Source: Kiritimatiellia bacterium
GTDB lineage: Bacteria; Verrucomicrobiota; Kiritimatiellia; RFP12; UBA1067
Reading direction: 5' to 3'
DNA length: 64,000 bases
Assembly (NCBI GenBank): GCA_017514235.1
Contig: JAFWKK010000016.1
Span: 2,221-66,220, forward strand
Shown: positions 20,801 through 37,560 of the stretch, one piece after another
Layout of the letters: each line of letters starts with the position of its first letter
Position numbering within the stretch: the stretch's first letter is position 1
Position numbers and translations under genes: made by a program
Notes under the pieces: model-generated
What the model saw: only the letters and a program-made list of their open reading frames with translations
What the model was told of the DNA's origin: nothing
The model's database searches: none

Positions 20801-21319
20801 GGGACGAGCGGCGGCGGACTTTATGCCAACAACTCACTTACGGCGATGAAGCTCTACGCATTCCGCATCTTCGAATCGGGAATGCTCGTCCACGAGTATT
20901 TGCCCTATAAGGTCGGCTCGACCGTCGGCCTCTACGACACGATGACTGGCGATGTGGTGACGAGCAGCATTTCCGGGAGCAACGCCTTCACCTACGGCGG
21001 CGGGCTTGGCTACGGCAAATATGCCGGCACGCGGCGCAACCTCGTCATTGCGCCGACGTCGACGTCTGTCTACTTTGATTCGTCGCGGACGCTCACGGCT
21101 TATGCTCCGGGTGCGGTGGCGTATCGCTGGACGTGCAACGGCGAGGAGGTTGCCGGCGGCGAGAACGGCGAACTTGCCGTGACGTGGCGCAAGACCAAGA
21201 CGCCTGACAACTATACTGTCGCGCCCGTCTATCTCATCAATGGCGAAGAGGCCGAAGGCGAAACCTCTTCCTTTGTCATCGAGAACGTGCCGCTCGGCAT
21301 GATGATCTTGCTTCGCTGA
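17894..21319 (+). CDS. Secreted repeat protein: five ~200-aa modules, an Ig-like region and a short C-terminal tail motif
   Basis: Signal peptide is MQMKKLIVAAALLSAAELFA. Five modules each start with [AP][YF][IV]E[SN]xDG and end with K[AMT][KR][LIV]YG.[KQR][IVF][YWF].. No catalytic motif was recognised. The protein ends in VPLGMMILLR. Confidence 0.85.
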   Translation: MQMKKLIVAAALLSAAELFADEAYIQSDGTQSINTGYYINAKTKIEIDFQMTEITSQGRLWGQNGTGCGNMAVVYFGDTANNFKIGYGNATFSGAFLAANNLERNTIIYDGPGNKGYLYQNGAQVASCDLTAAHNGTATFPMSIFGQSSNAKGAAANGLVKMKLYGFKVYEDDVLVHDYAPAFRGSITGLVDTVTGTFLYDTRASGGALTGSGNLVEVEDDPYIESDGTSAINLGISASPKLKVEIDYELTDVTDPTPDGSNHYQQRLFGEDTTSATPRMSVYVNGSKIIAVATGDGWDAKSTGVTADFRRHTVIIDNVAAVRALMTGVTTNWSDTCTDVTKCATRPLALLGNTANDAGTSFANLCKTKVYGCRIWSGGTLIRDLSPRNIGGTAGFEDLVTGRFYTCNGLTASENASTELSGASRDGDAFVESDGSFYSVVNTYYFVKPSTKIEIDYALAAIVSGAGVLGGYGANAGISTILWCNSTTKFVLEMRDGNHDATADDLLSPAIPLDLARHTAVLDGPGRHLSLSSHDGTVEAESDFHESWTLNTAQANWPVLLFGFATDAYGHNKQRAKARIYGVKFYENGSPVLTLTPAVKGGVAGFKDGDGNFYSGDGLIAGGAVETIDEDPYVENPDGGRFFDTGYYVTSNTCVKVDYMPLMQQNGQQFPFEAGDSISATNANKKMYMRTYGNGSSGQGDIAYACGGQLFISTSVPYAPHVRRQVTLDAYNLKCNVETAGVLVREVTIGAIGSVAQSSSTLKLLSNAGMNSGSCKARLYGVQIYEEGTLVRDYVPICQAGSYALLDKVQGKVLAKASNSKEFTGYTSNNDLDDAFFTAPMRAEDAYIESDGTQGINLGYQTTPNTRYEIDYALTAIVGQNRPFGEAGGNLSAELYIQGEATGSGNVAFGVGETWKGQYTSMGADLNRHLAVLDLANHQCGYSGKGMFKFGTDVTTKKTATNLMWLFAKGTSGGGLYANNSLTAMKLYAFRIFESGMLVHEYLPYKVGSTVGLYDTMTGDVVTSSISGSNAFTYGGGLGYGKYAGTRRNLVIAPTSTSVYFDSSRTLTAYAPGAVAYRWTCNGEEVAGGENGELAVTWRKTKTPDNYTVAPVYLINGEEAEGETSSFVIENVPLGMMILLR
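17960..21002 (+). repeat. Five tandem in-frame coding repeats (module starts at 17960, 18557, 19178, 19787, 20429)
   Basis: Module starts are AYIQSDGTQSINTGYY, PYIESDGTSAINLGIS, AFVESDGSFYSVVNTYY, PYVENPDGGRFFDTGYY and AYIESDGTQGINLGYQ. Module ends are KMKLYGFKVYEDDVLVHDYAP, KTKVYGCRIWSGGTLIRDLSP, KARIYGVKFYENGSPVLTLTP, KARLYGVQIYEEGTLVRDYVP and AMKLYAFRIFESGMLVHEYLP. The period is 597-642 nt. Confidence 0.85.
21287..21316 (+). other. Extreme C-terminal tail motif VPLGMMILLR-stop
   Basis: Shares G-h-x-I-x-[LI]-R-COOH with 30001..30030 and 37528..37557. Confidence 0.6.
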
Positions 21320-21344
21320 GCGAACGCGTCTAACAAACACCACG

Positions 21345-21383
21345 GGCTTCAGTTGTCATTGTGACTTGAGGCCCGTCTTCTGG
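21345..21383 (+). terminator. Weak terminator-like hairpin after the repeat-protein gene
   Basis: GGGCTTCAG / TTGAGGCCC is a 9-bp stem that includes two G-U pairs, with a 13-nt loop and the tail GTCTTCT. Confidence 0.3.
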
Positions 21384-21384
21384 A

Positions 21385-23829
21385 GTGAATGTCATGAGCA
21401 AAGCAATGGTTTTAGCCTTTTCGACAACCGCATTAGTTTCGTGCGGAGTGTGCGCGGCGGAGGTGGAGCAGGTGTTTAGACCGGAGCGGTATTCGCGCGG
21501 TGACACGAACGTGCGCGTGCAGCAGCCTATCGACGAGGCGTCGTGGGTGTGGGCGCAGGGCAGCGAAGTGTGGGGCGGGGCCGTATTCTCCAACACGCGC
21601 ACCGATCCCGCGACGCTCGCCAAGATGCCGCAGTCGTTCTTCCGGTTCCGCCGCGACTTCACGGCTGAGGAGGAGCCGCTGGAGATTGACATTTCCGCCG
21701 ACGAGCGGTTCGTTCTGCTTCTTGACGGCAGGGAGATTGCTAGAGGCCCTATGCGAGGTCTTCCAAACCGCTGGCACTACCAGAGCTACAGGGTTGCGGG
21801 GCTTGCTCAGGGGACGCATCGTCTTGAGGCGGTCTGCTGGCAGGTTGGCGAACATGCGCCTCTCGCGCAGGTCTCCGTGCGCGGCGGTTTCATAGCAAGG
21901 GCCTACGGCGGTTACGATTCGCAACTCACTACGGGCAAGGCGACGTGGAGAGTCGCGCCGCTTCACAGTACGCGCATGACGCATAAGGGGAAGTCGGGCG
22001 CGTTCGGCGTCGGTTCGCAGTGCGAGGTCTCAGGAGCGTCGCTGCTTGACGAGGAACCGTCCGCCGAATCGTGGCAAGACGCCGTCGTCGTGCGCGGCCC
22101 CGTCAAGACCTGGGCCGGGCTTACGGTGCAGGGCTGGAAGCTGTTCCCCTCGCCCCTCAGGGACTTGATGCACGAGCTGAAGACGCCTGGCGAGGTGAAG
22201 CGCGGATTCGACGTCCTGAAAGCGGGTGCGGTCGTGTCCGCCAACACGAAAGTCACGGCGTGGTGGGATCTCGGCAACTACTACTGCGCGTATCCGTCAT
22301 TGACTGTCTCCGGCGGCAAGGGCGCAAGAGTCAGCTGGGACTGGGCTGAGTGCCTGACCGGGGCGGACGGCAAGAAGGGGGATCGCGCGGCATTCGGAGA
22401 TGGACTGGACATGCCTCGTCCGTTCGGCGACGTGTTTCTCTGCGACGGGCGCGCACGTGCCCGTTTCTCCACGCCGTGGTGGCGCTGCGGACGCTGGTGC
22501 CGGCTGACGATAGAGACGGCGGACGAGCCGTTGACTCTCGACAAGGTCGAAATCGCCGAGACGCGCTACCCTGTTGAAATGGCCGCCTCGTTCGATTGCG
22601 ACGATCCGTTTGTCATGAAGATGCAGCCCGTGTGCGCACGCGCCTTGCAGATGTGCATGCACGAGATGTTCTTCGACTGCCCGTACTACGAGCAGCAGAT
22701 GTATCCAGGCGACAGCCGCGTTCAGTACCTTGTCTCCGGTCTTTTCGACACCGAGGACCGCATGGTTCGCAACGCGATTACGCTCTACGACACCGACCGA
22801 CGCGAGAACGGCATGATTCCCATGAACTGTCCGACACGCGGGATGCAGGACGCGCTGGGCTTCACGTGCTGCGAGGCGATGATGTTCGGCGACTACGCCT
22901 GGAATCATACGAACCGGGACTGGCTCAAGGCGCGGCTTCCTGGCCTCAACCACACGCTGATGGGAATGGAGCTGTTCTTGAACGGAGATGGGCTGCTTGG
23001 CAAGACGCCTGGCTGGAACTTCGTTGATTGGGTTTCGTCGTGGAGAGACGGCGTGCCGCCTGACGGCGACGATGAGAGGCCGAACGCCGAGATGAACCTG
23101 CAGTATCTCCACGCGATCCTTTCGGCTGCGATTGCCGAGGAGGCTGTCGGCGACGCTACGCTGGCAGCGCATTGGCGGACGCGAGCCGAGGTGCTAAAGG
23201 CTGCCCTGCGCAAGGCGTTCTGGTGCGCGGACAAGGCGCTGTTCTCGTCCGATGTGTCGAAGACAAAGTTCAGCGAGCATTCGCAGTGCCTTGCGCTTCT
23301 GGCTGACGTTGTGACGGGCGAAGAGGCCGAGCGTTGCTTCAAGGCTTTGGTCGAGACGCCTGATCTTGCCCGCGGCACGATCTATTACAAGCACTATCTC
23401 TTTGCGACATGCTTCAAGTTCCGACGCTCCGATCTCTTCTTCGGCAACCTCGGCTTCTGGCGCGATTGCCTTAACTGGAACCTCTCGACTATCCTTGAGA
23501 CGCCAAACATCAACTCGCGCAGTGACTGCCACGGTTGGGGGTCTCATCCGCTCTGGCACCTGCATACGGGCGTTGCGGGCGTGAAGAGCGCCGCGCCGTT
23601 CTACGAGAAGGTCCTTGTAGAGCCTCAGCCCGCGCACCTGAAGCATATTCGCAGCTCCACGCCTACACCGAGGGGAGACGTGAAGCTTGACCTGGCGTTT
23701 GACGGAGAAGCGGTGTCCGGCACGGTTGCGCTGCCGGAAGGTCTTGCCGGAGTCTTTCGGTGGAAGGGCCATGAGCTGCCGCTCGCAGCCGGCAAGCCAT
23801 GTAACATAAGTATCTCAACTGGCAAATGA
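21385..23829 (+). CDS. GH78-like alpha-L-rhamnosidase family protein (start GTG 21385 or ATG 21394)
   Basis: Signal-like N-terminus. FFDCPYYEQQMYPGDSRVQ is typical of the six-hairpin domain of the bacterial rhamnosidase family. An N-terminal rhamnosidase-like beta domain has RFRRDF...LLLDGREIARGP. Confidence 0.7.
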   Translation: MNVMSKAMVLAFSTTALVSCGVCAAEVEQVFRPERYSRGDTNVRVQQPIDEASWVWAQGSEVWGGAVFSNTRTDPATLAKMPQSFFRFRRDFTAEEEPLEIDISADERFVLLLDGREIARGPMRGLPNRWHYQSYRVAGLAQGTHRLEAVCWQVGEHAPLAQVSVRGGFIARAYGGYDSQLTTGKATWRVAPLHSTRMTHKGKSGAFGVGSQCEVSGASLLDEEPSAESWQDAVVVRGPVKTWAGLTVQGWKLFPSPLRDLMHELKTPGEVKRGFDVLKAGAVVSANTKVTAWWDLGNYYCAYPSLTVSGGKGARVSWDWAECLTGADGKKGDRAAFGDGLDMPRPFGDVFLCDGRARARFSTPWWRCGRWCRLTIETADEPLTLDKVEIAETRYPVEMAASFDCDDPFVMKMQPVCARALQMCMHEMFFDCPYYEQQMYPGDSRVQYLVSGLFDTEDRMVRNAITLYDTDRRENGMIPMNCPTRGMQDALGFTCCEAMMFGDYAWNHTNRDWLKARLPGLNHTLMGMELFLNGDGLLGKTPGWNFVDWVSSWRDGVPPDGDDERPNAEMNLQYLHAILSAAIAEEAVGDATLAAHWRTRAEVLKAALRKAFWCADKALFSSDVSKTKFSEHSQCLALLADVVTGEEAERCFKALVETPDLARGTIYYKHYLFATCFKFRRSDLFFGNLGFWRDCLNWNLSTILETPNINSRSDCHGWGSHPLWHLHTGVAGVKSAAPFYEKVLVEPQPAHLKHIRSSTPTPRGDVKLDLAFDGEAVSGTVALPEGLAGVFRWKGHELPLAAGKPCNISISTGK

Positions 23830-23879
23830 CTGCTTGTCATGACGCACGGACAAGCAGAGGCAAGGGCGTTGCGTTTTTT
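23830..23879 (+). terminator. Terminator-like structure after the GH78-like gene
   Basis: CTGCTTGTC / GACAAGCAG is a perfect 9-bp stem with a 10-nt loop. It is followed by the small hairpin GCAAGGGCGTTGC and a T6 run. Confidence 0.45.
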
Positions 23880-23932: not shown

Positions 23933-24037
23933 AAACGCGCAATGGAATGCTGTTCGCGCAAATCGTTTATAACCGGCTCTGCCGCGTTTGCGGCGTGCGG
24001 GCGTCGGGCCATTGAAACCAAGGCAAGCGGATGAGAT

Positions 24038-26842
24038 ATGGCAAAGCGACTTCTCATTGTCTTGGCCCTGCTTGGTACGTTTGCGGCAATTGCGGATGCG
24101 GACCTGCCAAATGCTCGGTTCGATAAGGCCCTGGAAGGCCAGCCGGATGGCTGGCGGCTTACGGCGTCCGACGGCGGTGACTGGCTGAAGAATGTCGGTC
24201 GTGATGGTGATGCCGCGATACGGGTGACAGGCAAGGGCTCCTCGTCCGGGCAGTGGCGATCCGATCCCGTGGAACTGGCGACAGGACGATGCTATGTCTT
24301 TTCGTTCTGGAGCAAGGGGAACGGGTCAGGCTGCGTCACCAGCGGAATCGACGACATGAACGTGGATTGGGGTTGTGCGGGAGAGCAGTGGACTCAACGC
24401 CTCAACGTTTTGCGGACTCCAGATCGGCCAGGCGTCTACACCCCGGCATTTCATCTGGGCCAGTGGATGATGGATGGCGAAGCGCTTTTTGACGATGTGG
24501 CGTTGACGCCCGTCAGGCCCGTCTACGTGAAGGCTGGCGATGTGGAGCTTGGCCATGGCGAACAGGTTGACGGCAACCGATATTCGTTCTCTACGCAATA
24601 TGGCGCAGTGTCGCGGAACCATGCGCGGACGCTCGTGGAGGGGACGTCATCCTTCAATTCGGACCGTTGGGACATTGGGCGAGGGCGTTGCATCGCTTAC
24701 CGCTTTGCCCTTCCCCGCCGCACATGGAGCTCCGCAAAGGTCGGTGTGACCTGCGGACATTATACAAAAGGAACGGCGGATGTCGAGATTTCGTCCGATG
24801 GGGAAAAATGGAAACAGCTTGCCATGGTCACAAGTGCGACGACGGTGGAACTTGACGTTCCGGCGTCACTCTTTCCTGCTGCCGCAATTTTCGTCCGTGT
24901 TCGCGGGAACGATCCTTGCCAGCTGCAGATATATCACGTATCCTTCATTGGTGAATTTTCTGGCGTGCCTGTGACGGCTGTAGGTGCTACGAAATATTTG
25001 GACGAGAAGTCGGGGACTGTCGTATGCAAGACAGCCGGATGTACGTTCTTCTCTGACGATTACGGCGAAATCTTGCCGTGCGGCGGCAATGACGTGAATC
25101 TCTGGCGGGCGTCGAGCGGATGGAAGATTCCACGAGTGCGAGAGCTTCCGAAGAAGAAGGCCAAGGGTCTTTTCATCCAAACGGCGGCGAATGAGGCGGA
25201 AGCCGTGCAGCTTGTAGTTTCGCCGAAGGATGCCCTTGATGACGTCCGGGTCGAAGTGGCAGGTCCGCTGGTCTGCCGCTCTGCCGGAAAGGAACTGACG
25301 GCAGTCTCCGTGGAGGTCCTTCGTGTCGGATATGTTTCAGTGGACGTTCCGACAGACGAAGTGGGGTGCCGTGCGCGCTGGCCCGATCCTCTGCCGCCGC
25401 AGGACGGCGCGGCATTCCCTGTTGCGGCAGGAGAGAACCAACCGTTCTGGGTGCGCGTGAAGCCGCCTAAGGGAACGCCTAAGGGCGTCTATGCCGGCTC
25501 GCTGCAGGTGGTCTGCTTAAAAGCAAAGAGCCGACAGAAGATGACTTTCTCCGTTCCGCTGTCCGTAGAGGTGTTTGGATTCGAGTTGCCGGATGTGATG
25601 ACATGCGAGACGGCGTTCGATTTCTCGCTATGGACCGTCTCGAAGTATCATGGGCTCAAGACCGCCGAGGAGAAAAAAATTGTCGCGGAAAAGTATCTCC
25701 GTTCGCTTGGCGACCATCACATCTCGCCATACGATCCTGCGCCCAACGTAAACTGGAGCGTGAAGTGGAAGGGGATGGAGAATCCCATGACCGCCGAGCC
25801 GGCGTTTGACTGGGCGTCTTGGGACAAGGCGGTGGAGGAGGCGCTCGCCAAGCATCACTTCAACACGTTTCTCATTCGTGTAAAAGGGCTTGGCGGAGGC
25901 AACTATCAGAAATGGTCGCAACCGGAGTTCATGGGAATTCCTGCCGACAATCCGGCGTATGATGTCCTGGTCGGGAAGTATCTTCACGGGATTGAACGTC
26001 ATCTGGAGGAGAAGGGCTGGCTGGATAAGGCGTTCCTCTACGCCTTCGATGAGCCGGAGCCGAGGCACTATCCGATTGTGATGCGGATATTCGAGACAGT
26101 GAAACGACATGCGCCGAAGCTGCGTCGTATGGTCACGGAGGAGGCCGTCGAGGCGCTTCACGGCGGGCCGAACCTCTGGGTGCCGCTCACGCCGAACCTT
26201 CACGTCTCCGGAGAGAAGAAGGCTCGCGCTGCAGGTGACACATTCTGGTGGTACGTGTGCTGTGGACCGAAGGCCCCGTATGTCACGGAGTTCATCGACC
26301 ACCCCGGCACGGAAATGCGCCTGTGGCTGTGGCAGACGTGGGGAGAGAACGTGTCAGGCATCTTGATCTGGGCGACGACATGGTGGACCAGCGCGAACGC
26401 CTACCCCGATCCAGCCCATCCGCAGAACCCCTACGAAGACCCAATGGGCTGGTGCGAGAGCGACAGCCTCGGGAGAGGGACGAAAAGTCCGTGGGGAAAC
26501 GGCGACGGACGCTTTCTCTATCCGCCGCGTGCTGCGGCCCAGCCGTCGCCCACGCCAGTCCTGGACGGGCCTGTCGATTCGTTCCGCATCGAGATGCTTC
26601 GTGACGGCATCGAGGACTATGAGTATTTTGCGATGCTGAAACGGCTTCTTGACGAACGGCGAAATCTTCCTCCGGCCTTTCGCGCCAATGCCGAAGCGCT
26701 ACTGAAGGTGCCGTCGTCCGTCTATTCGTCGATGACGGAGTTCACGACGGATCCGGAGCCGATGGAGGCTCACCGCAAGAAACTTGCGCGTGCAGTCGAA
26801 AAGATTTTGATACAATACAATGCAGCCGGGGTGAAATCATGA
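24038..26842 (+). CDS. Secreted DUF4091/GH123-like glycoside hydrolase with an N-terminal carbohydrate-binding-like region
   Basis: Signal peptide is MAKRLLIVLALLGTFAAIADA. The C-terminal half has YAFDEPEP, WWYVCCGP, GILIWATTWW, GDGRFLYP and FRIEMLRDGIEDYEYF, recalled as DUF4091 features. Confidence 0.7.
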   Translation: MAKRLLIVLALLGTFAAIADADLPNARFDKALEGQPDGWRLTASDGGDWLKNVGRDGDAAIRVTGKGSSSGQWRSDPVELATGRCYVFSFWSKGNGSGCVTSGIDDMNVDWGCAGEQWTQRLNVLRTPDRPGVYTPAFHLGQWMMDGEALFDDVALTPVRPVYVKAGDVELGHGEQVDGNRYSFSTQYGAVSRNHARTLVEGTSSFNSDRWDIGRGRCIAYRFALPRRTWSSAKVGVTCGHYTKGTADVEISSDGEKWKQLAMVTSATTVELDVPASLFPAAAIFVRVRGNDPCQLQIYHVSFIGEFSGVPVTAVGATKYLDEKSGTVVCKTAGCTFFSDDYGEILPCGGNDVNLWRASSGWKIPRVRELPKKKAKGLFIQTAANEAEAVQLVVSPKDALDDVRVEVAGPLVCRSAGKELTAVSVEVLRVGYVSVDVPTDEVGCRARWPDPLPPQDGAAFPVAAGENQPFWVRVKPPKGTPKGVYAGSLQVVCLKAKSRQKMTFSVPLSVEVFGFELPDVMTCETAFDFSLWTVSKYHGLKTAEEKKIVAEKYLRSLGDHHISPYDPAPNVNWSVKWKGMENPMTAEPAFDWASWDKAVEEALAKHHFNTFLIRVKGLGGGNYQKWSQPEFMGIPADNPAYDVLVGKYLHGIERHLEEKGWLDKAFLYAFDEPEPRHYPIVMRIFETVKRHAPKLRRMVTEEAVEALHGGPNLWVPLTPNLHVSGEKKARAAGDTFWWYVCCGPKAPYVTEFIDHPGTEMRLWLWQTWGENVSGILIWATTWWTSANAYPDPAHPQNPYEDPMGWCESDSLGRGTKSPWGNGDGRFLYPPRAAAQPSPTPVLDGPVDSFRIEMLRDGIEDYEYFAMLKRLLDERRNLPPAFRANAEALLKVPSSVYSSMTEFTTDPEPMEAHRKKLARAVEKILIQYNAAGVKS

Positions 26843-29800
26843 ATGAAGCCAAAGGGAAGAGACGCATGAAAAGAAAGACTGTTTTCATAGTCGCGGGAGT
26901 TTTCCTGACAATGTCAGTCTCTGCGGACACCTACTACTGGCGCGGGTCCAACACCGCCTGGTCGGACTGGACAAACATCGCTGATGGCGGCTGGTCGCTT
27001 GCGCGCGATTCATATGTCGCGCCATCGCATGTGCCCGGCACGGATGCGGGCGACACGCTTTGGCCGTTTGGTGTTCAGTCACAAAACTATATAGGCAACT
27101 TCAATCTTGGCGGCGGCAGTTACACAGTTGCAGGCTACTCGTCGGAGGGCAATGTCCCTGCGAATTGGCAACTATATCAGTTGCAGATTACGAATGGAAC
27201 GCTGACGGTATCCAGTTTCCAGAAACCATTCAAGACGGGCAGCACTTCAGATCGTGCTCCAGTTGCATGGAGGTATGATGTCTGGAACGGCGCGACATTC
27301 AATTTTAATACGGTGCTTGGAGGCTTTGACCGGGCATACGGTGCAAGTGGGCTCTATGAATATTGGTATGTGATGTCTGGTGGTCGCATGAATCTTCCGG
27401 GGCCTTTGGTGCCTTGCGCTTTGGATGTTACCGTGAACAGCGGTGGCGTCCTGAATGTTGCAGACGGCACATTCCGCGTCAACAATAACTCTCATCGTGA
27501 TTATCCGAACAAGATCACAAACTTTGGCACACTACTTCTTCCGAATGGCTTTGAATGGGTTGCCGGCGATCCGTGGTCGCCTACCGCCAACAACTCAAAA
27601 GCCATGATCGTTACGCAAAGCGCCGGAGAAACCCGGATGGGCGGCGATTTCAAGAAGACCGGTCTTGAATCGCACAACTATACGGTGATGATGAAATTCG
27701 TGCTCCAGGGCGGAACGCTTACGGTCGAGGAGAACAAGTCGGTCTCGTTCATCAGCCACACGGACCGCAACTCAGGCTACACCAAGAGCGAGGAGGTGTT
27801 TGCCGAAATGCCTGCATCTGCATCGGCAACAGTGCAGACGCTTGCCGGCTCAGTGCTTGACATGTCACTCTTCACATACGGCAACGGGGCTGCGTTGACG
27901 AAGACGGGATCTGGCACTCTGATTATGAAGGATCGCCCGGCGACAGTCAATGTGACGGCGGGCATGCTCAAGTTGACGAATTCTGTTGCCGATCTTTCGG
28001 GTGTCAGCCTTTCGTCTGGCACGACGCTTGAGTTTGCGCAGGCTGGAAATGTTGCAGCTGTGGCTCCGACCGGCTATGCCAGCGCAGTCTTTGCGCTCGA
28101 CAACTCCGGAGGTGCCTTTACCGACGGCGCTAACGTGATCTCTTCGAACGACGCTGATTTTCTTGCGGCTGTGGCTACATCATTGAATGCCGGCGGCACG
28201 GTGCCGGCAGGCCTGGCCGCGATAGTGTCCGGCGGTGCGGTAAAGGTGATGACGCCGCCGTCGCACACGTTCACGAGCGATGGCGAACTTGACCTTGGCG
28301 ATGCGTCAGGCTGGAACATGCCAGGCTACGTCGGCACAAACGTGTTTGTAAGCGGCGCATCGACAGTCGCCCTGATTTCGCCGGCCACCCCTGCGTTCGA
28401 CAGCATCACGCTGAGCGACGGCGCGACGCTGAAGGTTTCTGGCGATGGCATCGAATTGCCGAAGATTACGTTGCTTACCCCGTCAACGCTCCTCGTGCCG
28501 GGCGGATCGAGCGCGGTGATGACCAATGGCTTCACGGCTGCTGGCGATGTGAGCGGACTGCCTGTCGTCAAAGTAGAGACGAACGGAGTTCTCACCGTGG
28601 CGCGCGGCACGAAGTTCAAGAACTGCGCGGTGAAGCTCTATGGCGAGATCGGCGTGCCGCCGGTCTATGGCGACGTCAAGCTTGCGGATGACCAGGGCAT
28701 TCAGTTCGGCTATGCAGCGGCGGGCGAGACGACGTACTTCGCGATGGAGTCCATCGGAGGCAATATAAATGTCTCCGGCAATACGACGGTGGACCGTCAG
28801 AAGGAGCTGACTTTTGCATGGGCGGACAACGGCGGCCGGGTGCTGACGTACGGAGACATCCTGCTGAAGGACACGACGTTCAAGACGCCGCAAGGAGCCT
28901 GGCATTACATCGGCAAAATGATCGGCGGCTATAATCCGGACGATTCCGGCATTCGTGTGGTGCTTGACAACACGGTGTTGCCGTTGCGGCGCTTCAACTG
29001 GTTCAATTCCGGTACTGTCGTCTGCCGTAATGGCGGGAGGCTGGAGCGTCAGGACTATCATGCAGGAACCGACTGTCGCCTGACTGTCGACAGATACACG
29101 AGGATCGAATGCGAGGGCGAAGGCTCTGGACTTTTCCTGCCGTACGCGAACGTATGGCGTCCGTTCTACTACGACATCTGGCTAGATGGCGGCGTCGACC
29201 AGTTCACGTTCAGGGACGGCGCGGTTATGGCGGCGCACTACTACTGGGGCGGCAACCATTCTGTTCTCGTCTTCTCCAACGGCGTCTACCAGGTGGGTAC
29301 GCTTCCGTTCGTTTCCAGCGACAGGAATCCCAACCCGCCGAATGGAGATCCGCACAACTGGATGACCAACGCATTCACCGGGGCACATTCTGTGCGTATC
29401 GAACGGGGCGGCAAGCTGTTCTTCCAGTCCGCGTCCGTTCTCAGCGGAACGGAGTGGGACCGATACATGACGCTTGCCGACAAGCCGATCAAGGGCGAAG
29501 GCGACTTCGTGATGACTAACGGCGTGCCGGGACGCGGTTTTTCTGCGACTGTGGTCTGCAACCGCAACACCTCGACCGGCTCGATCTCCGTTGCGCCGTC
29601 CGCCGATCCGACTACGCTCTTCTTCAACGACGGTGCGAACTGGGCGGGCACGGTCGTAGCGGGCAATATAGCGCTTACGAACCTGACAGCGGCGGCGAGC
29701 CCTTCGACAGTCAGTTTCAAGACGCTTGACCTTTGCGGAATCTTCCCGATCCGCATCATGGATAATGGCGGAATCCACACAAACGACGTTGTGAACATTT

Positions 29801-30033
29801 CAACGGCATTGACGGGTGGCGGCGCGATCAAGCCGATCGTGCAGCCGGGGCTCAGGCTGTCAGGCGGCGAGACCTTCGTGCTGGGAACATGCCCGGCGGC
29901 CGGCGTCGACACGTCCGGTCTGCAGTCGCATGTGACGCGCAACTGGGAGCTCATGTCCGAAGACGCAGGCGGCGGCAAGGTGCGGTTGCTGCTCAAGTAC
30001 ATGCCTCGCGGGCTGCTCATTTCAATAAGGTAA
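26839..30033 (+). CDS. Large secreted beta-helix/adhesin-like protein with a PATR (autotransporter-associated beta-strand) repeat and a short C-terminal tail motif; no beta-barrel
   Basis: ATGA overlap with the upstream stop. Basic N-terminus plus a hydrophobic signal. LTKTGSGTLIMKDRPATVNVTAGMLKL matches the PATR pattern. Ends in MPRGLLISIR. Confidence 0.8.
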   Translation: MNEAKGKRRMKRKTVFIVAGVFLTMSVSADTYYWRGSNTAWSDWTNIADGGWSLARDSYVAPSHVPGTDAGDTLWPFGVQSQNYIGNFNLGGGSYTVAGYSSEGNVPANWQLYQLQITNGTLTVSSFQKPFKTGSTSDRAPVAWRYDVWNGATFNFNTVLGGFDRAYGASGLYEYWYVMSGGRMNLPGPLVPCALDVTVNSGGVLNVADGTFRVNNNSHRDYPNKITNFGTLLLPNGFEWVAGDPWSPTANNSKAMIVTQSAGETRMGGDFKKTGLESHNYTVMMKFVLQGGTLTVEENKSVSFISHTDRNSGYTKSEEVFAEMPASASATVQTLAGSVLDMSLFTYGNGAALTKTGSGTLIMKDRPATVNVTAGMLKLTNSVADLSGVSLSSGTTLEFAQAGNVAAVAPTGYASAVFALDNSGGAFTDGANVISSNDADFLAAVATSLNAGGTVPAGLAAIVSGGAVKVMTPPSHTFTSDGELDLGDASGWNMPGYVGTNVFVSGASTVALISPATPAFDSITLSDGATLKVSGDGIELPKITLLTPSTLLVPGGSSAVMTNGFTAAGDVSGLPVVKVETNGVLTVARGTKFKNCAVKLYGEIGVPPVYGDVKLADDQGIQFGYAAAGETTYFAMESIGGNINVSGNTTVDRQKELTFAWADNGGRVLTYGDILLKDTTFKTPQGAWHYIGKMIGGYNPDDSGIRVVLDNTVLPLRRFNWFNSGTVVCRNGGRLERQDYHAGTDCRLTVDRYTRIECEGEGSGLFLPYANVWRPFYYDIWLDGGVDQFTFRDGAVMAAHYYWGGNHSVLVFSNGVYQVGTLPFVSSDRNPNPPNGDPHNWMTNAFTGAHSVRIERGGKLFFQSASVLSGTEWDRYMTLADKPIKGEGDFVMTNGVPGRGFSATVVCNRNTSTGSISVAPSADPTTLFFNDGANWAGTVVAGNIALTNLTAAASPSTVSFKTLDLCGIFPIRIMDNGGIHTNDVVNISTALTGGGAIKPIVQPGLRLSGGETFVLGTCPAAGVDTSGLQSHVTRNWELMSEDAGGGKVRLLLKYMPRGLLISIR
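30001..30030 (+). other. Extreme C-terminal tail motif MPRGLLISIR-stop
   Basis: Same motif as above. Encoded with AT-rich codons (TCA ATA AGG TAA). Confidence 0.6.
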
Positions 30034-30058: not shown

Positions 30059-30922
30059 ATGACACACAAGGAACGGAAAGAGGAAGTGCGCGAGATTCTC
30101 GCGCTGGATACGGATGAACTCGTGAAGCGCGCGAAGGGACAGCTGGTGCTGTTCCCGACGCTTGACGAAGTGTACGACTATCTCGCAGAAGAGATGGTGA
30201 AGGAGTTCGCCAAGGCGGCGAAGGGCAAGAAGATAGTGAACTTTATCATGCCTGTCGGCCCCACGCAGCCATACCGCCTGATGGCCGAGAAGATCAACTA
30301 CCGCCAGCTGAACCTGAAGAACGTCCGCTTCTTCTTTATGGACGAGTATGTCGACGACGAGAAGGACGAGCTTATCCCGAAGACTAGCCCGCTTTCGTTC
30401 CGCGGGCAGATCGGCCCGTTGCTCTTCAACCGCATCCGCCCGGACCTGATGATGCCGAAGGACCAGATAATCTTCCCGACACCGAAGAACGTCAAGGACC
30501 TCCCGAAGATGATAAAGGACGCCGGAGGCATCGAGGTGTGCTACGGCGGCATAGGCATCCACGGGCATGTCGCGTTCAACGAGCCGGCGCCGGGCGTGGC
30601 GGAGTCTAACCCGCGCATACTTGAGATCAACGAGTTCACGCGGACGATCGACTCTACGCGTCATTGCGGCGTCGGCGGCAATCTTGAGAACTTCCCGCGC
30701 CGCGCGATCACGATGGGCATGAAACAGTGTCTTGAAGCGCGCAAGATGCTCCTCATGACGCGCAACGAGACGACGGCGTACCTCTGGGCGAACACGATTC
30801 TCAGGATTGCCGCGCTCGGCAAGCCGGGCGACGACTATCCCGTCACCCACGCGCGCTACCACAAGAACCTGCGCATCGTCTCGGACTACGGCACGGCCCA
30901 GAAGCCCAGATTCAACATCTGA
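30059..30922 (+). CDS. nagB: Glucosamine-6-phosphate deaminase/isomerase family protein (NagB-like)
   Basis: AAGGAGG Shine-Dalgarno upstream. FFFMDEYV and GGIGIHGHVAFNEPAPG motifs. Confidence 0.78.
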   Translation: MTHKERKEEVREILALDTDELVKRAKGQLVLFPTLDEVYDYLAEEMVKEFAKAAKGKKIVNFIMPVGPTQPYRLMAEKINYRQLNLKNVRFFFMDEYVDDEKDELIPKTSPLSFRGQIGPLLFNRIRPDLMMPKDQIIFPTPKNVKDLPKMIKDAGGIEVCYGGIGIHGHVAFNEPAPGVAESNPRILEINEFTRTIDSTRHCGVGGNLENFPRRAITMGMKQCLEARKMLLMTRNETTAYLWANTILRIAALGKPGDDYPVTHARYHKNLRIVSDYGTAQKPRFNI

Positions 30923-30936: not shown

Positions 30937-33141
30937 ATGTCGGGATTGCTTGCAGCATTTCTGTGCGCTGTCGGAATGCCGTCCTTGGCGTTTGACGAGG
31001 GCGGCTTTTCCATCGACTTCGCCGCTGCTTCGGCCCGGCGTTTCGCCAATGGCGCGAAGTTCACGGAACGGTCGGGCTATCCCGTGTCGGTGACGAACCG
31101 TCCGTTCGGATACATCGACAACCGCTTCGCGATTTCCGAAGGGCAGTGCGGAGTCGTGTCTTTCGGCTGGCGACGCGACAGCGCCTATCCGTGCAAAGTC
31201 CATACCAAAGACTTCCACTTCGAAATCGGCATTCCGCGCGGCTATCGCCTGCTGGGAACGACCTTTGGAGACGTCGCGTCGCGCAGAACGGATACGTCGC
31301 CTGACGGGTCGGCCGTCGTCCGCTGCAGGATCCGCGACGGACTCGAGCCGAGCTCGTGGATGAACAACCAGTCGCCATGCAATGTGCTTGTCGCGCCGAA
31401 TGACGGAGCGGGGACGGGGAACCTGACGTTCCGGGTCGTAGACCCGCGCGGAACCCCGCTTTCCAATCTTGCGTCCGTCGAGCTTTACTTAGTGCCGCCG
31501 GTGAAGGCGAAGGCGGTTCCGAAGCGTTTCCGCAACGGCATGGACGCCTCGTTGCACATATATTTCCGCGAGGCGTCAGCCTATGAGGAGCTAGCCAGAC
31601 TGTTCGGGGACATCGGCGCGAGGTGGCTGGTGCAGGACATTCGCAATGGGGCGTTCATTCCTTATTGGCGCAAGCATGCGGGAGGCCCTGTCACGCCGAT
31701 GTGGGAAAAAGTCATCGAGAACGGTTTCCGCGTCGGCCGTCCCGAAACCTTGCCTGCCTCGGAGCATTTCGTATGCGACCCGAAAAGTCCGCGCGTAACC
31801 CGTAAGGAGGGGCGTGCGAAGTACCTCTCAGACTCGACGTGCCCGACGACAGTCTACCGCGAAAGCGAGCATTTCAGGACCGTGACGATGGCCGAACTGG
31901 ACAGGCTTCTTGCCGGGGCGGACGGACTGTGGGGCAATTGGGAGCCGTCGATGTTCTACAAGAACGGCTGCTGGTGCGAACGTTGCCGCGACGAGTTCAC
32001 ATCATGGTCAATGCTGCCGGCGGACGAAGTGAAAAGGGAATGGCCGAAGCTTATCCAGGAAGGGGGACGTCTTGAAAGGCTGGGGTTGAAGTTCCATTCG
32101 TGGCAGCACGCTAACGTCGTGAGGACGCTTGACCGTTACGTCCGCAAGGCAACGGGCGGCGAGAAGTCCTGCGGATTCATTCCAGGCGTCGCTGCGGTGG
32201 AGATGTCCGATTACTGGCTGCGGACCGGATACCCGCAGGCAATGCTGCAGATCGACTATTCAGGCGACGTCAGGTGGATGAACCCGTGGGGGCCGTATGT
32301 GCGCTGGGAGTCGGAACACCCGTACGTGCATGAGCGCCGGGCCTCGCTGATCTACTGGGTTTACGCGCAGGACGTCAAAAGGACCGTGGCGATCGACCAT
32401 CGGGACGGGCGCATTCCGAAGCTGCTTTCGTATCCGCAGGGTGGCCAGTGCGGAACGTGGGTGACGCAGCCAGAGCAGATCGGCCTTGCGCTCGACTCGT
32501 TCCTGCTAAACGGCTGGGACGCCAATTGCGTCTATTATTTTCCGAACGGATACGATGCCCGTTACTTGAAGGCATTCGCCGAAGCCAACGAGCGCGCAGC
32601 CGTTGCGGAGGATTTCGTCTTGGACGGGACACCTGCGGACGACCGCGTTTTGGTCTCTCCGGTTGCGGAGTATGCCGTGCCGGTCAGGACAGTGACGGCA
32701 TGGCTGCCGGCTTACACTAACGTATCGCTCTTGCAGTCCAAGGCGTTCGACTTGAAGGGCAGCCGGCTGGTTGCAGTTCTTAACTTCTGGGATGCGGGGA
32801 TGGCGTTTGCCAGTCTGAAATGCAGCGGTCTTGCCGCAGGGGAGTATTCCGTGGTTTCGGGTGACATGGCCTGGGTCAAGGACCTCGAGCGTCCTTATTG
32901 GACGGCCGAAGAGCTGGCGAACGGGATTCGCGTTGCGGTCGGCGCGGCGAGATCGTCGTTCTTCGTGGTCCGTCCGCGGGGGACGCGCGTGCCGAGGGGA
33001 TTGGCCAGGCTTGTGACGAGCGACGCAATTGACGCGCTTTACGCGCAGCGCCGTGCCGCGCTCAGAGACGCGGCGGAACGCGATGCGGAAGAAGAGCGCC
33101 GCCTGCCGCCGCCGAAAATGGATTGGATGGGCCTTAACTGA
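30937..33141 (+). CDS. Hypothetical secreted protein (734 aa) with a CxCxxC motif
   Basis: Signal-like N-terminus MSGLLAAFLCAVGMPSLA. WGNWEPSMFYKNGCWCERCRDEF. No family recognised. Confidence 0.65.
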   Translation: MSGLLAAFLCAVGMPSLAFDEGGFSIDFAAASARRFANGAKFTERSGYPVSVTNRPFGYIDNRFAISEGQCGVVSFGWRRDSAYPCKVHTKDFHFEIGIPRGYRLLGTTFGDVASRRTDTSPDGSAVVRCRIRDGLEPSSWMNNQSPCNVLVAPNDGAGTGNLTFRVVDPRGTPLSNLASVELYLVPPVKAKAVPKRFRNGMDASLHIYFREASAYEELARLFGDIGARWLVQDIRNGAFIPYWRKHAGGPVTPMWEKVIENGFRVGRPETLPASEHFVCDPKSPRVTRKEGRAKYLSDSTCPTTVYRESEHFRTVTMAELDRLLAGADGLWGNWEPSMFYKNGCWCERCRDEFTSWSMLPADEVKREWPKLIQEGGRLERLGLKFHSWQHANVVRTLDRYVRKATGGEKSCGFIPGVAAVEMSDYWLRTGYPQAMLQIDYSGDVRWMNPWGPYVRWESEHPYVHERRASLIYWVYAQDVKRTVAIDHRDGRIPKLLSYPQGGQCGTWVTQPEQIGLALDSFLLNGWDANCVYYFPNGYDARYLKAFAEANERAAVAEDFVLDGTPADDRVLVSPVAEYAVPVRTVTAWLPAYTNVSLLQSKAFDLKGSRLVAVLNFWDAGMAFASLKCSGLAAGEYSVVSGDMAWVKDLERPYWTAEELANGIRVAVGAARSSFFVVRPRGTRVPRGLARLVTSDAIDALYAQRRAALRDAAERDAEEERRLPPPKMDWMGLN

Positions 33142-33150
33142 AACGGTGAA

Positions 33151-34551: not shown

Positions 34552-34557
34552 TTGCGG

Positions 34558-35736
34558 TCAGGAGGGCGTCCGCTCGCGCCAGTCGGACGGGGTCAGCCCC
34601 GTTGCCGTAGAGAATGCGCGAGACAGGTATTCCAACGTAGAGAAGCCAGTTCGTGCCGCAACCTCCTTGATCGGCAGGGAAGTGTGCGAGAGAAGCTTCT
34701 TCGCCTCTTCAATTCGCGTTTCTGCAATTTGCCTCTGCACAGATGTGGCGATGTTGTCCCTGAAGGTGCGCTCCACGAGCGTGCGCGAGAACCCTACATG
34801 CCTGAATACGTCTGAAGCCGATATGCCCTTGGTGGCGTTAGAACGGATGAATGCGAGTGCATCTGCAAACCATTGTGGCGCATGCGGGTAGATGTTGGTA
34901 GATGCACGTTCGACGATTCCTTTGGGCGGTATGATCACCTGTGGAGGATTTTCTCGTGCATTCTTTTCCGACAGCATTTTTGCAAGCGCAGAGGCTGCGG
35001 CCCGTCCGATGGCAGGGGCGCCGGGGTCTATGCTTGAAAGGCGTGGCGTCGTGAACATGCAGAACATCGGGTCGTCATCCACGCCGAGTATCGCTACGTC
35101 GGACGGGGCCGAGAGTCTTAGCAAATGGCATGCGGCGAGAACGTGCGAAGCCCGAAGGTCATCGCAACAGAACACGCCTATGGGTTTCGGCAGCCGCTTA
35201 AGCCATTTGGAAAGGTCGTCAAAGTCAGGAGGCGATTCGATGTGGTCGCCCAGCAGGAAGTCGCGTCTGAAGCGGTTCTGGGGATGAAACGGCGGACGGT
35301 AGATTGCGGGACGAATCTTGTTCTTCTCAAGAAATGTGGCGAATGCGTTGCGACGCCTGTCCGAGAAGGAAACGCGGCGGTAGCCGCAGAACGCGAAGTT
35401 TGAGAATCGGTGCCGCATCAGATGCTCTGCGGCTAGGCGTCCGATTGCATCGGCATCAGTCTTGACTGTGGCGAACCTCGGCTGTGAGATTGCACAGAGG
35501 CAGTCAACGACAGGACTTTCGCATCGGGCCAGCGCCTTTGCCGTGCGGATGTCGACAACGCGGCAGATCCAGCCGTCGAATCCGTTGGACGCCTTGAACG
35601 CGGCTTGCTGGGGATCGACAAGCACGAGACTCCATTCCGGATGCTGTTCGGCGATCTCGGCAACGCCGCATATGCAGTTGCGTCCATAGGCACTAGACCG
35701 TTCTACGGCGACCGCTATGTTTATCTGTCGCTTCAT
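34558..35736 (-). CDS. XylR-like transcriptional regulator (periplasmic-binding-protein-like sugar sensor domain plus AraC-type HTH)
   Basis: N-terminus MKRQINIAVAVERSSAYGRN... is LacI/PBP1-like. The C-terminus SASDVFRHVGFSRTLVERTFR...IKEVAARTGFSTLEYLSRAFSTATGLTPSDWR is an AraC double HTH. The ATG lies 7 nt after TGTTATAAT on the minus strand. Confidence 0.85.
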   Translation of the reverse strand: MKRQINIAVAVERSSAYGRNCICGVAEIAEQHPEWSLVLVDPQQAAFKASNGFDGWICRVVDIRTAKALARCESPVVDCLCAISQPRFATVKTDADAIGRLAAEHLMRHRFSNFAFCGYRRVSFSDRRRNAFATFLEKNKIRPAIYRPPFHPQNRFRRDFLLGDHIESPPDFDDLSKWLKRLPKPIGVFCCDDLRASHVLAACHLLRLSAPSDVAILGVDDDPMFCMFTTPRLSSIDPGAPAIGRAAASALAKMLSEKNARENPPQVIIPPKGIVERASTNIYPHAPQWFADALAFIRSNATKGISASDVFRHVGFSRTLVERTFRDNIATSVQRQIAETRIEEAKKLLSHTSLPIKEVAARTGFSTLEYLSRAFSTATGLTPSDWRERTPS

Positions 35737-35743
35737 GCTCTGT

Positions 35744-35752
35744 ATTATAACA
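35744..35752 (-). promoter_or_regulatory. Extended -10 box TGTTATAAT on the minus strand (XylR-like regulator; leaderless)
   Basis: The reverse complement reads ATCTGTTATAATACAGAGCATG, with 7 nt between the -10 box and the ATG at 35736. Confidence 0.6.
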
Positions 35753-35762
35753 GATCTCCGTG

Positions 35763-35802
35763 GCGTTTTGTGCAGATGGATTGTAAAAAGTACAGTTGAT
35801 TT
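35763..35802 (+). promoter_or_regulatory. Conserved 40-nt upstream element, copy 2
   Basis: See copy 1. It lies between the divergent regulator promoter and the LamG-protein promoter. Confidence 0.7.
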
Positions 35803-35825
35803 CATGGAGATAGATTAAGTATAAT
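35796..35825 (+). promoter_or_regulatory. Promoter TTGATT-18 nt-TATAAT (LamG protein operon)
   Basis: The -35 is embedded in the conserved element. The leader to ATG 35908 is about 80 nt. Confidence 0.6.
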
Positions 35826-35907
35826 ACCCTGCAGAAGGAAAAACTGTGCACTTGACCACCGATTTCCATAACATCGGCTGCCCAAGCAGGGCGTCAGAAA
35901 GGAAACT

Positions 35908-37560
35908 ATGAAAAGGCCACACGCCTTTACCGTCGCATGTCTGGCAGGTTGTGCTTTTGCAGCCTTTGGAACGGCCTGCGCAGAAACGGTCGCGTGGTAT
36001 CGGTTCGATGATGCGGATCCGGGCACGAAGACTACCGGCGGCATGGCCGTAACAAACTGTGTGGACGCTTCGTATCCTGCCATGCCGCGCACGATTTATA
36101 ACACGACATACCATGACAGCGCGTCCCCGAACCAGAACTATCTACCGACCTTCGCCGAGTCCGCTCCGACAAACTATGTAGTCTATGACCCTGTGAGCGG
36201 ACGGCGTGTCGCAAATCGCGGAGGACTTCACTTCCACACGAACGGAAGCTCTGACCGAAATGGCGGCCTGCTGCGCATCGAGGATAACGCGGCTCTTCGG
36301 GCGATTACGAATTTGACGCTGGAAGCGTTCATCCGTCTGCCTACAGATGTAGCCATTGCGGCAAACTATATGCGCCCGATCATTCTCAAGATGAATGATG
36401 GGTATCAAGGATCGTGGGGACTGCATGTGTTCGAGTCCAACCTCATGCATCGCGCAACGCTTCTTCTCGCTGACAACTCGACGAAGGTCTGTGCGTGGGG
36501 GAACAAGTCGCAGAGCGCGCGGGTGGATGACGGGCGGTGGCACCATATGGCCGTGACGTATGATTTCGGCACTCGGAAGGCGCGTTCCTACGTGGACTAT
36601 GAGTGTATAAACACGTTGGATATTGATGCCAACGCAGTCGGGTTCTATCATCCCGAGAACAGTCCATTGCTGATCGGCGGCAACGACTTGAATAATACGC
36701 GCCGGTTCTGCGGCGACATCGACGAGGTGAGGATTTCGAACGAGGCCTTGCCGCCGGAGAAGTTCCTGCGGTACATCCCGTTGCGCGAGATTGATGCGGA
36801 CACTGCGTTCTACATGCCGTTTGACGATGGCTTGGCGGAGTGGTTCAGCGCGTCGTATCCGCCGCTCAACGCGGCGACGAATGCGCCGGGAGGAGTATTC
36901 TGCTACCGCAATGAAGGGACTCCTGCCGCAGCCCGCGTTTTGGATGTGCCTGGCGACGGCATTCGTGCGGGGCGGCAGTCGATGACAAGATTCGCAGACG
37001 GCGGTGCAATCAATCTTCCGGTTACAGCGGTAGGCGTACACAACGGCACGAGTTTCACGTTGCAGGATCCGAACAAGTCGGTGGCTTCTGGCAGCTATAC
37101 GTTCGAGGCGTTCTTCAAGACGGACCGCCAGGTGACGAAACCGGCGGAATCGACGTATGGCGATTCGTTCTGCATCTTCAATGCGGCTTTCATGAAGGTG
37201 CTCATAAACGGCGGCGCGGGCGGCGATACGCTTTTCCGCCACAAGAGCGTGGATGGCGATACGAGCCTGCAGCTTGGCCCTCGTCTTGACGACGGCGTAT
37301 GGCACCATATCGCCCTTGTGTTCGATGCCGACACGCTGACAATGACCGGCTATGTCGATTACAAGGCTGTCACATCCTCCGCCGTTAAGGCAAAGGATTA
37401 TTCCGGTTCCGGCGATATTCGCTTGAGCGGCGAGAACTCCGGCTATCAGACGTTTGCCGGAAGCTTCGATGAGGTACGCATTACGCGGCGGGCGTTGGAA
37501 ACGAGAGAGTTCCTGACGACACGTCCCATTACTGGGGGTGTAAGGATATTAATCCGTTGA
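35908..37560 (+). CDS. Secreted protein with two LamG (concanavalin-like) domains and a short C-terminal tail motif
   Basis: Signal peptide is present. LTLEAFIRLP...GRWHHMAVTYD...CGDIDEVRISNEALPPEKF, then YTFEAFFKTD...GVWHHIALVFD...FAGSFDEVRITRRAL. Ends in ITGGVRILIR. Confidence 0.85.
   Translation: MKRPHAFTVACLAGCAFAAFGTACAETVAWYRFDDADPGTKTTGGMAVTNCVDASYPAMPRTIYNTTYHDSASPNQNYLPTFAESAPTNYVVYDPVSGRRVANRGGLHFHTNGSSDRNGGLLRIEDNAALRAITNLTLEAFIRLPTDVAIAANYMRPIILKMNDGYQGSWGLHVFESNLMHRATLLLADNSTKVCAWGNKSQSARVDDGRWHHMAVTYDFGTRKARSYVDYECINTLDIDANAVGFYHPENSPLLIGGNDLNNTRRFCGDIDEVRISNEALPPEKFLRYIPLREIDADTAFYMPFDDGLAEWFSASYPPLNAATNAPGGVFCYRNEGTPAAARVLDVPGDGIRAGRQSMTRFADGGAINLPVTAVGVHNGTSFTLQDPNKSVASGSYTFEAFFKTDRQVTKPAESTYGDSFCIFNAAFMKVLINGGAGGDTLFRHKSVDGDTSLQLGPRLDDGVWHHIALVFDADTLTMTGYVDYKAVTSSAVKAKDYSGSGDIRLSGENSGYQTFAGSFDEVRITRRALETREFLTTRPITGGVRILIR
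37528..37557 (+). other. Extreme C-terminal tail motif ITGGVRILIR-stop
   Basis: Same motif as above. Encoded with AT-rich codons (GTA AGG ATA TTA ATC CGT). Confidence 0.6.

Follow-up and report, generated by a model that had tools for sequence, protein, structure and literature searches.

The 64,000-nucleotide stretch of Kiritimatiellia DNA analyzed here (assembly GCA_017514235.1, contig JAFWKK010000016.1, positions 2,221 to 66,220; hereafter the window) carries three plus-strand genes whose products, all secreted, end in the same short sequence. This C-terminal tail, and the role it might play in the cell envelope, is the subject of the present study.

Three genes with a common end

The first gene (17894..21319) encodes a protein of 1141 amino acids made up of a signal peptide, five LamG/LNS-like jelly-roll modules, a C-terminal Ig-like domain and the tail. 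The predicted signal peptide spans 17894..17956 (MQMKKLIVAAALLSAAELFA, followed by D), and the protein ends in ENVPLGMMILLR, i.e. VPLGMMILLR. Its tail proper, PLGMMILLR (21290..21316), is immediately followed by the TGA stop codon at 21317-21319 and scores 22.6 with the position-specific scoring matrix (PSSM) of the motif. The second gene (26839..30033) is an open reading frame (ORF) of 1064 codons for a secreted PATR-like protein of about 1055-1064 residues, depending on the start codon. The likely start is ATG 26866, as in P0077, a 100% identical protein from the metagenome-assembled genome of a Kiritimatiellae bacterium. From there, a predicted signal peptide extends over 26866..26925 (MKRKTVFIVAGVFLTMSVSA, followed by D). 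The protein ends in KYMPRGLLISIR, i.e. MPRGLLISIR, with tail PRGLLISIR at 30004..30030 (PSSM score 21.0) and stop codon TAA directly behind it at 30031-30033. The third gene (35908..37560) specifies a secreted protein of 550 amino acids with two LamG domains, for which Pfam returns two Laminin_G_3 matches (E 2.7e-33). Here the predicted signal peptide (35908..35982; MKRPHAFTVACLAGCAFAAFGTACA) precedes ETVAWYRF, and the conserved pattern TV.WYRF[DE] is the mature start in LamG homologues. The protein ends in RPITGGVRILIR, i.e. ITGGVRILIR; the tail, TGGVRILIR (37531..37557; PSSM score 9.2), sits past the end of the second LamG domain (...DEVRITRRALETREFL) and immediately before the TGA at 37558-37560. 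All three signal-peptide boundaries are approximate and were read from the translations. The five-module protein matches nothing in Pfam or NCBIfam and the PATR-like protein of the window nothing in Pfam; the Pfam PATR model is found in other tail-bearing proteins, from the loci described below.

Translation of the ORFs gives exactly the three ends that a sequence-only reading of this DNA had reported, and inspection of the translations bears out the N-terminal signal peptides that it had assigned to all three proteins. That reading had seen no recognizable catalytic motif in any of them, in agreement with Pfam, whose only matches are the two Laminin_G_3 domains. It had also stated that the enzymes of the locus do not end this way; a scan of ORF ends and the tail PSSM extend this to every other gene in the window. 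Two details need amendment. The proline said to lie 1-3 residues before the glycine does so in two of the tails and lies 3-4 residues upstream in the remaining one. The rare, AT-rich codons said to encode two of the tails are there (TTA, ATA and AGG, in the LamG and PATR-like tails) but are not a general feature.

In the six frames of the window, which hold 1176 stop-to-stop ORFs of at least 30 amino acids, G..I.[LI]R occurs at the very end of these three proteins only. Given the amino-acid frequencies of the window, and with the reservation that the motif was defined after the fact, the probability that at least three of 52 genes would end in the strict motif is about 1e-9, and 5e-6 for the relaxed form G-x-x-[ILVM]-x-[VILF]-[RK]. 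A chance origin of the three shared ends was rejected on these grounds.

A conserved and strictly terminal motif

The same tail is found at the extreme C-terminus of about 325 homologues belonging to the three families, which are mutually unrelated by BLAST. It is kept in 195 of the 212 homologues retrieved by word search. Sixty-four of the 76 relatives of the LamG protein found in the word-indexed search have it, as do about 112 of the 120 homologues of the five-module protein and 15 of 16 word-search relatives of the PATR-like protein. A profile of the latter family, run against 1.84 billion cluster representatives, returned 371 clusters, and the tail terminates 130 of the 147 newly listed representatives. 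Unless obviously truncated or frameshifted, LamG relatives with as little as about 25% identity still terminate in a tail, for example QPNGTMLIVR, GTFILVR or GGLMIVVR.

The position profile, pooled over 269 distinct tails, is equal in each family, and the earlier motif can therefore be generalized to a consensus that reads, from the sequences at hand, (P)-x-G-x-x-Φ-x-Φ-R-COOH. The frequencies were taken from sequences above the score threshold, which the great majority of homologues pass, so that the resulting bias is small. Counting back from the C-terminus, the last position is Arg in 82% and Lys in 10% of the tails (92% together) and aromatic in about 1-2%. Positions -2 and -4 are strongly hydrophobic in 100% (aromatic in 11% at -2), position -3 is hydrophobic in 83%, mostly Ile, and position -5 in 63%. 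Position -6 is occupied by Thr, Leu, Phe or Met. At the start of the tail only Gly(-7) is nearly invariant (87%, otherwise Ala or Ser), with Pro(-9) present in 55%. A minority of PATR-like members keep the register and end in Phe, Tyr or Trp (GFIISIY, GMQIIVF, GLVISIF; P0253, P0280, P0355, P0376, P0387, P0272, P0255 and the gene at 19990-22323 of locus L006), resembling the canonical end of an outer-membrane β-signal.

A score above 12 bits is reached at the C-terminus of 186 of the 212 word-search homologues, as compared to one of 204,012 internal positions, and the stop codon comes directly after the terminal Arg. The strictly terminal position and the immediate stop point to recognition of a free end. 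An extension was seen in one homologue only, P0267, whose …PGGILLNFR continues for eight more residues (GAPPPES); this could be due to read-through or to a frameshift, or it could be a genuine departure from the free-end rule. The motif carries only some 15-25 bits, too little for significance across a library of 1.8 billion proteins.

Conservation of the tail is not imposed at the nucleotide level. Sixty-one distinct tail-coding sequences use all six Arg codons, all four Gly codons and all three stop codons, and GC content at third codon positions is 0.753 in the tail compared with 0.774 upstream (n=55 genes, p=0.79). A nucleotide-level constraint or a rare-codon signal was rejected accordingly; the use of all six Arg codons indicates that selection acts on the protein.

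All named relatives belong to Kiritimatiellae/Kiritimatiellia or bear the older label "uncultured Verrucomicrobia". Two distant LamG matches, P0074 and P0076 (Pirellulaceae), do not have the tail, and no homologue with a different kind of anchor was retrieved. A scan of genome contigs, made with one protein, yielded five loci, and the known range is that of gut- and rumen-type Kiritimatiellae. From these sequences the tail appears to be specific to the Kiritimatiellae lineage.

Carriers and neighboring genes

Proteins bearing the tail were surveyed in the window and in 60 fetched loci, 596 kb in total, by scanning with the PSSM. They fall into six clusters unrelated by BLAST. Additional carriers encoded among the neighboring genes match the Pfam models PATR, PKD, Flg_new_2 (InlB B-repeat) or Laminin_G_3, or none at all. 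By a crude hydrophobicity rule, 163 of 192 carriers have a signal-peptide-like N-terminus, the remainder having truncated or fused starts. A lipobox-like pattern is present in only 22 of 317, from which we conclude that the carriers are not lipoproteins; the 22 look like cysteines inside signal peptides of the signal peptidase I type, and lipoprotein anchoring was rejected. The carriers are Sec-exported, non-lipidated and mostly non-catalytic Kiritimatiellae proteins of the binding or adhesin type.

Tail genes can be several to a locus: the 64-kb window has three, and locus L006 has three to four within 22 kb. Secreted enzymes of the same loci end without it, including GH20, GH123, GH78-like, GH39-like, GH106, GH95, Melibiase, GHL10, SASA, GDSL lipase, Metallophos and DUF5696 proteins. 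One carrier is catalytic. Encoded at 779-4675 (+) of locus L066, this protein of 1298 amino acids combines a glycerophosphodiester phosphodiesterase (GDPD) domain with a faint LamG match and ends in ...GTIISVK, so that non-catalytic proteins are not quite the only ones to have the tag. The sequence-only reading had put forward, as a hypothesis, a compact sorting, anchoring or docking tag that tethers glycan-binding proteins at the cell surface. This is supported in part: a portable C-terminal tag is upheld by the roughly 325 homologues, the unrelated domains that precede it and its disorder in structure models (see below), and the restriction to non-catalytic proteins has to be relaxed.

In the window, the tail genes lie within a glycan-utilization cluster evident from Pfam annotation (13106-44766, or ~13.1-44.8 kb). 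Its enzymes comprise a NagA-like amidohydrolase, a GH39-like fusion, GH78-like, GH123 and GH20 proteins, a class II aldolase and three calcineurin-like or purple-acid metallophosphoesterases, two of which have twin-arginine signals. A xylose-isomerase-like TIM barrel with a Tat signal, an MFS transporter and an AraC-type regulator (Peripla_BP_3+HTH_18) are also encoded. This gene content suggests a substrate containing hexosamine and phosphate. Three ORFs of the cluster have no Pfam match: 30059-30922 (+), 287 aa; 30937-33141 (+), 734 aa; and 37557-38912 (+), 451 aa. The latter two products have a signal peptide and no tail. The listed TTG start of the last of these, a β-helix-like gene, at 37557 overlaps the stop codon of the LamG gene, and ATG 37572, preceded by GGTGAG, looks like the real start.

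Apart from this cluster the window holds housekeeping genes, and Pfam recognizes no secretion or sorting genes in it. When 375 heuristically called genes from the 60 loci and the window were clustered, no peptidase, sortase-like or outer-membrane gene recurred beside the tail genes, and no prepilin-like (G-F-T-L-I-E) neighbors were found. Outside the window, the gene most often found beside five-module genes codes for a regulator of the same AraC type as in the cluster (31 copies in 28 loci), and it was the only recurrent neighbor. With no receptor gene linked to the tail genes, the reader of the tail, if there is any, would be encoded elsewhere.

Two variants of the five-module architecture were observed. 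In six clusters (P0197, P0202, P0203, P0205, P0210 and P0212), extracytoplasmic function (ECF) sigma-70 domains share one ORF with the five-module part. The ECF sigma-70 domains come first and are followed by a single transmembrane helix (at about residues 180-200) and an acidic/Ser-rich linker. Next is what looks like a complete gene start, with "KEK.TM" (a codon pattern resembling AAGGAG) and an entire signal peptide including its AxA site, and then come the LamG-like modules and the tail. Such ORFs imply either a fused sigma/sensor protein or an internal start. A subgroup of 1450-1505 amino acids (P0101, P0102, P0107, P0112, P0118, P0120 and others) is extended near the N-terminus by some 330 residues, a region that begins with AWYD[DNS]PS[IV][IV]KKVPL right after the signal peptide and is also present in P0191, P0195 and P0199.

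A predicted disordered end on ordered domains

AlphaFold2 models built from family alignments are confident overall, with a predicted local distance difference test (pLDDT) score of 84.7 for the LamG protein and 83.6 for the five-module protein. The best Foldseek matches of the latter model are the LNS arrays of neurexin-1α (E 2.5e-19) and laminin LG domains, which identifies its five modules as jelly rolls of the LamG/LNS type. The models show LamG-type jelly rolls and, in the five-module protein, the Ig-like domain, and neither contains a β-barrel. Scores below 50 are found at residues 1-20 of the five-module protein, the signal peptide, and over the tail, which is modeled as coil in both cases (residues 543-550 of the LamG protein and 1136-1141 of the five-module protein). 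Since it is left disordered in both modeled families, the tail does not look like a strand of the fold; on its own it is predicted to be disordered.

It could nonetheless be argued that the tail is an ordinary structural element, the last capping β-strand, which happens to look alike in several β-rich folds. All carriers are indeed β-rich, the residues just before the tail form a β-strand in the five-module protein (E1125-1132), and P-x-G could make a hairpin turn. However, the strands next to the tail are modeled with confidence while the tail itself stays unstructured. Moreover, one and the same profile follows a LamG domain, an Ig-like domain (in the five-module family) and PATR-type regions. 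In the LamG family, the tail comes within about 14 residues of a LamG domain, which is the second in proteins of 550 amino acids and the third in paralogues of 780. Nor would a capping strand account for the conservation of the exact stop after Arg. We consider this explanation highly improbable, and an integral structural strand is disfavored by the two AlphaFold2 models. The tail behaves as a portable, protein-level C-terminal linear tag and not as part of the fold.

Disorder of the monomer would also be expected of a self-association zipper. In this scenario, the tail is an aggregation-prone β-segment flanked by gatekeepers (Pro/Gly before, Arg after), and tails pair with one another, so that different lectins and adhesins would join in a mixed complex or matrix at the surface and a dedicated receptor would not be needed. 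Four to five consecutive β-branched or aliphatic residues between P-x-G and R, the many different carriers co-encoded in the same loci and the lack of a receptor gene nearby all fit such a mechanism. It does not call, however, for a strict stop after Arg or for R/K at the last position in 92% of the tails, and the constant spacing of the Gly (87%) suggests that binding occurs in a set register. Tails that aggregate without control in the periplasm would, moreover, presumably do harm. On balance, tail-to-tail assembly seems quite unlikely.

Relation to described C-terminal signals

No NCBIfam model matches the full proteins at E<=1, no CTERM model matches the isolated tails at E<=10, and no Pfam model covers the tail. 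Known CTERM, type IX secretion system (T9SS) and other curated models were ruled out for this reason, and a literature search found no description of the motif. As far as sequence comparison can tell, the tag matches no described family.

The best-known C-terminal sorting signals, LPXTG/sortase, PEP-CTERM/exosortase, GlyGly-CTERM/rhombosortase and MYXO-CTERM/myxosortase, resemble the tail in their position at the extreme C-terminus, in their multiple copies and in their unrelated, signal-peptide-bearing carriers. They follow a tripartite design of signature motif, hydrophobic stretch and basic end (bioRxiv 10.1101/2023.06.07.544157), an order mirrored by the P-x-G, hydrophobic stretch and Arg of the tail. 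Among the defining traits of sorting signals, the tail displays terminal position, multiplicity, a signal peptide and carriers unrelated outside the signal, and lacks the two architectural ones, a hydrophobic region of transmembrane length (five residues here) and 2-5 basic residues (a single R/K here; bioRxiv 10.1101/2023.06.07.544157). Of the eight attributes listed in that work for C-terminal sorting signals, five apply to the tail in full and two in part. It is also far shorter, 7-9 residues compared to about 20-35, and no sorting enzyme is known or was seen for it. Having neither a segment of transmembrane length nor a basic cluster, it does not belong to the sortase, exosortase, rhombosortase or myxosortase class, and, judged by its composition, it would be unable to work like signals that depend on a transmembrane helix. 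The sequence-only reading was right to consider it too short for a PEP-CTERM, LPXTG or GlyGly-CTERM anchor.

One could still envision a miniaturized cleavable signal: a peptidase or transpeptidase would cut near P-x-G, remove the hydrophobic stretch with the Arg and attach the protein covalently to lipid, lipopolysaccharide or glycan, in parallel with sortase/LPXTG, exosortase/PEP-CTERM or PorU/T9SS. The distribution of the tail is that of such a signal (C-terminal, several copies, signal peptides, unrelated carriers), as is the order of its parts. In other phyla, what is usually found at the C-terminus of PATR proteins is an autotransporter barrel or PEP-CTERM, and in the PATR proteins described here the tail holds the place of that anchor. 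Against this stand the brevity of the hydrophobic stretch, far short of a transmembrane helix that the known intramembrane sorting enzymes need to present the motif, the single basic residue, the lack of a CTERM match and the presence of Pro(-9) in only about half of the tails. Furthermore, neither the window nor some 74 loci showed a gene resembling those for sortases or exosortases. A cleavable signal is therefore unlikely.

The tail also resembles the β-signal of outer-membrane proteins, whose consensus ζxGxx[Ω/Φ]x[Ω/Φ] occupies the last eight residues and is read by BamA/BamD (PMC10945584). The G-x-x-Φ-x-Φ of the tail is in β-signal register (Gly 87%, Φ 100% and 100%), with the same spacing and the same exact placement at the C-terminus, yet an additional R/K follows it and a Pro rather than a polar residue precedes it. 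Aromatic residues are rare in the tail (1% at -1, 11% at -2), positions -3 and -5 are mostly hydrophobic as well, and the carriers are soluble multi-domain proteins of LamG, PATR and Ig type, in contrast to the barrels that bear β-signals. The sequence-only reading had set the β-signal aside because the tail lacks an aromatic terminus. That difference is real, and there is no barrel; however, the comparison was dismissed too quickly, the core of the tail being equal to the β-signal core (PMC10945584). In the protein entry P0057, an N-terminal LamG part is followed by an outer-membrane-barrel part (DUF481, PF04338) that ends in ...YILGLGYKW, a canonical aromatic β-signal. This entry may be a chimeric assembly; if it stems from the same lineage, the usual β-signal is still in use there on ordinary outer-membrane proteins.

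The L-type pyocins offer a precedent of sorts: in these lectin-domain proteins, a C-terminal peptide β-augments strand 1 of BamA, binding through its final 16 residues (PMC13463100). They parallel what may hold for the tail carriers, as lectin-domain proteins in which a short C-terminal peptide pairs with an Omp85 strand and mimics a β-signal. However, pyocins are toxins that act from outside on another cell and their peptide is longer, and binding of the Kiritimatiellae tail to BamA is hypothetical.

The C-terminal domain (CTD) recognized by the T9SS, which ends in a β-strand and often in a basic residue, is another signal found on large secreted adhesins and glycan-active proteins. This system is a feature of Bacteroidota and the FCB group. 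Its CTD folds as an Ig-like domain and comprises about 70-100 residues, whereas the tail consists of 7-9 disordered residues that can come directly after a LamG domain. This spacing and the lack of any Pfam or NCBIfam CTD match bear out the earlier statement that the tail is not a T9SS CTD.

PDZ ligands, such as those of GspC in the type II secretion system (T2SS) and of tail-specific proteases, likewise consist of a few residues forming a free C-terminal strand, with hydrophobic residues at -2 and -4, and are read by strand addition together with the carboxylate. The strict terminal position of the tail is compatible with such binding. PDZ ligands differ in ending in a hydrophobic residue where the tail has Arg, and no PDZ partner of the tail was identified. 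A role of PDZ domains in the choice of T2SS substrates is known from only a few proteobacteria. PDZ proteases recognize a free hydrophobic C-terminal strand, and this lends some plausibility to the notion that the tail is a proteolysis or quality-control signal through which a periplasmic tail-specific or PDZ protease (of the Prc/Tsp, CtpA or DegP type) governs how the carriers mature, how long they last or when they are released. A Prc/Tsp homologue does exist in the lineage (locus L065:3505-5742 (+); TSP_NTD, PDZ, Peptidase_S41 and DUF3340 domains). The gene is located 4 kb upstream of that for a tail-bearing protein of 1514 amino acids, and the enzyme is a candidate class of tail reader. 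Its linkage looks coincidental, since it lies amid housekeeping genes and is not present in the other loci. Moreover, Prc-type enzymes prefer small non-polar terminal residues, not Arg, and a degron kept on hundreds of large, costly secreted proteins from three families is difficult to rationalize. We regard a role in proteolysis as very unlikely.

Discussion

The findings presented here describe a tail that is conserved in three families, strictly terminal, portable between unrelated proteins, disordered in structure models and carried by exported binding or adhesin-type proteins. The explanation that we favor, at somewhat better than even chances, is that it serves as a linear tag for docking or sorting, recognized by an envelope receptor that the carriers share and to which it would add as a β-strand. 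In this mechanism, the carrier would be exported to the periplasm by the Sec system with its tail still disordered. The tail would then pair edge-on, as a strand, with the receptor (β-augmentation), burying its hydrophobic face (positions -6, -4 and -2) in a groove of the receptor, while a specific pocket would read the terminal Arg with its free carboxylate. Docking would direct the carrier to the outer membrane or cell surface, or hold it there.

As for the receptor, our first preference goes to a protein of the Omp85 family (BamA-, TamA- or TpsB-like), because the core of the tail equals that of the β-signal; by this analogy, such a protein may be the reader. A PDZ-type domain, for example that of T2SS GspC, comes second as a candidate. 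It is tempting to go further and speculate that, with its 7-9 residues, the tail represents the first compact linear signal at the C-terminus for export or surface anchoring of folded soluble proteins in a diderm bacterium, read by an outer-membrane Omp85-family protein as a docking, non-inserted mimic of the β-signal or by a PDZ-type domain of the T2SS. This more specific proposal is possible, though we hold it to be rather doubtful.

The mode of docking, the reader and the place where the carriers end up are what we infer here, and several observations weigh against a docking or sorting tag. Neither candidate reader fits cleanly, for the terminal residue is Arg and not the aromatic residue of a β-signal or the hydrophobic residue of a PDZ ligand, which most PDZ domains prefer. 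With positions -5 and -3 mostly hydrophobic as well, the strand has less amphipathic character than edge strands typically do. In the 60 loci and the window, no conserved candidate receptor or peptidase adjoins the tail-bearing genes. The loci of the survey were picked through their tail-bearing genes, so that frequencies and enrichments are biased with respect to whole genomes. Finally, AlphaFold2 confidence is low at chain ends in general.

Guts, rumens and sediments harbor abundant Kiritimatiellae, glycan degraders of which barely any have been cultured. What had been noticed at the ends of three proteins is now extended to hundreds of large secreted sugar-binding or adhesin-like proteins of the gut and rumen members of this group. 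The tag provides a sequence handle with which to predict their surface or secreted binding proteome from metagenomes, and a way to search for the apparatus that reads it. It may also be relevant to the way in which secreted proteins are chosen to cross the outer membrane or dock to it and, if it is a docking tag as we propose, would add a class of C-terminal signals that work without a membrane-spanning segment. Should the reader prove to be an Omp85 protein or the T2SS, the tag would define which proteins of a glycan-utilization locus are displayed while the enzymes stay behind. If transferable, a display tag of nine residues would also be useful.

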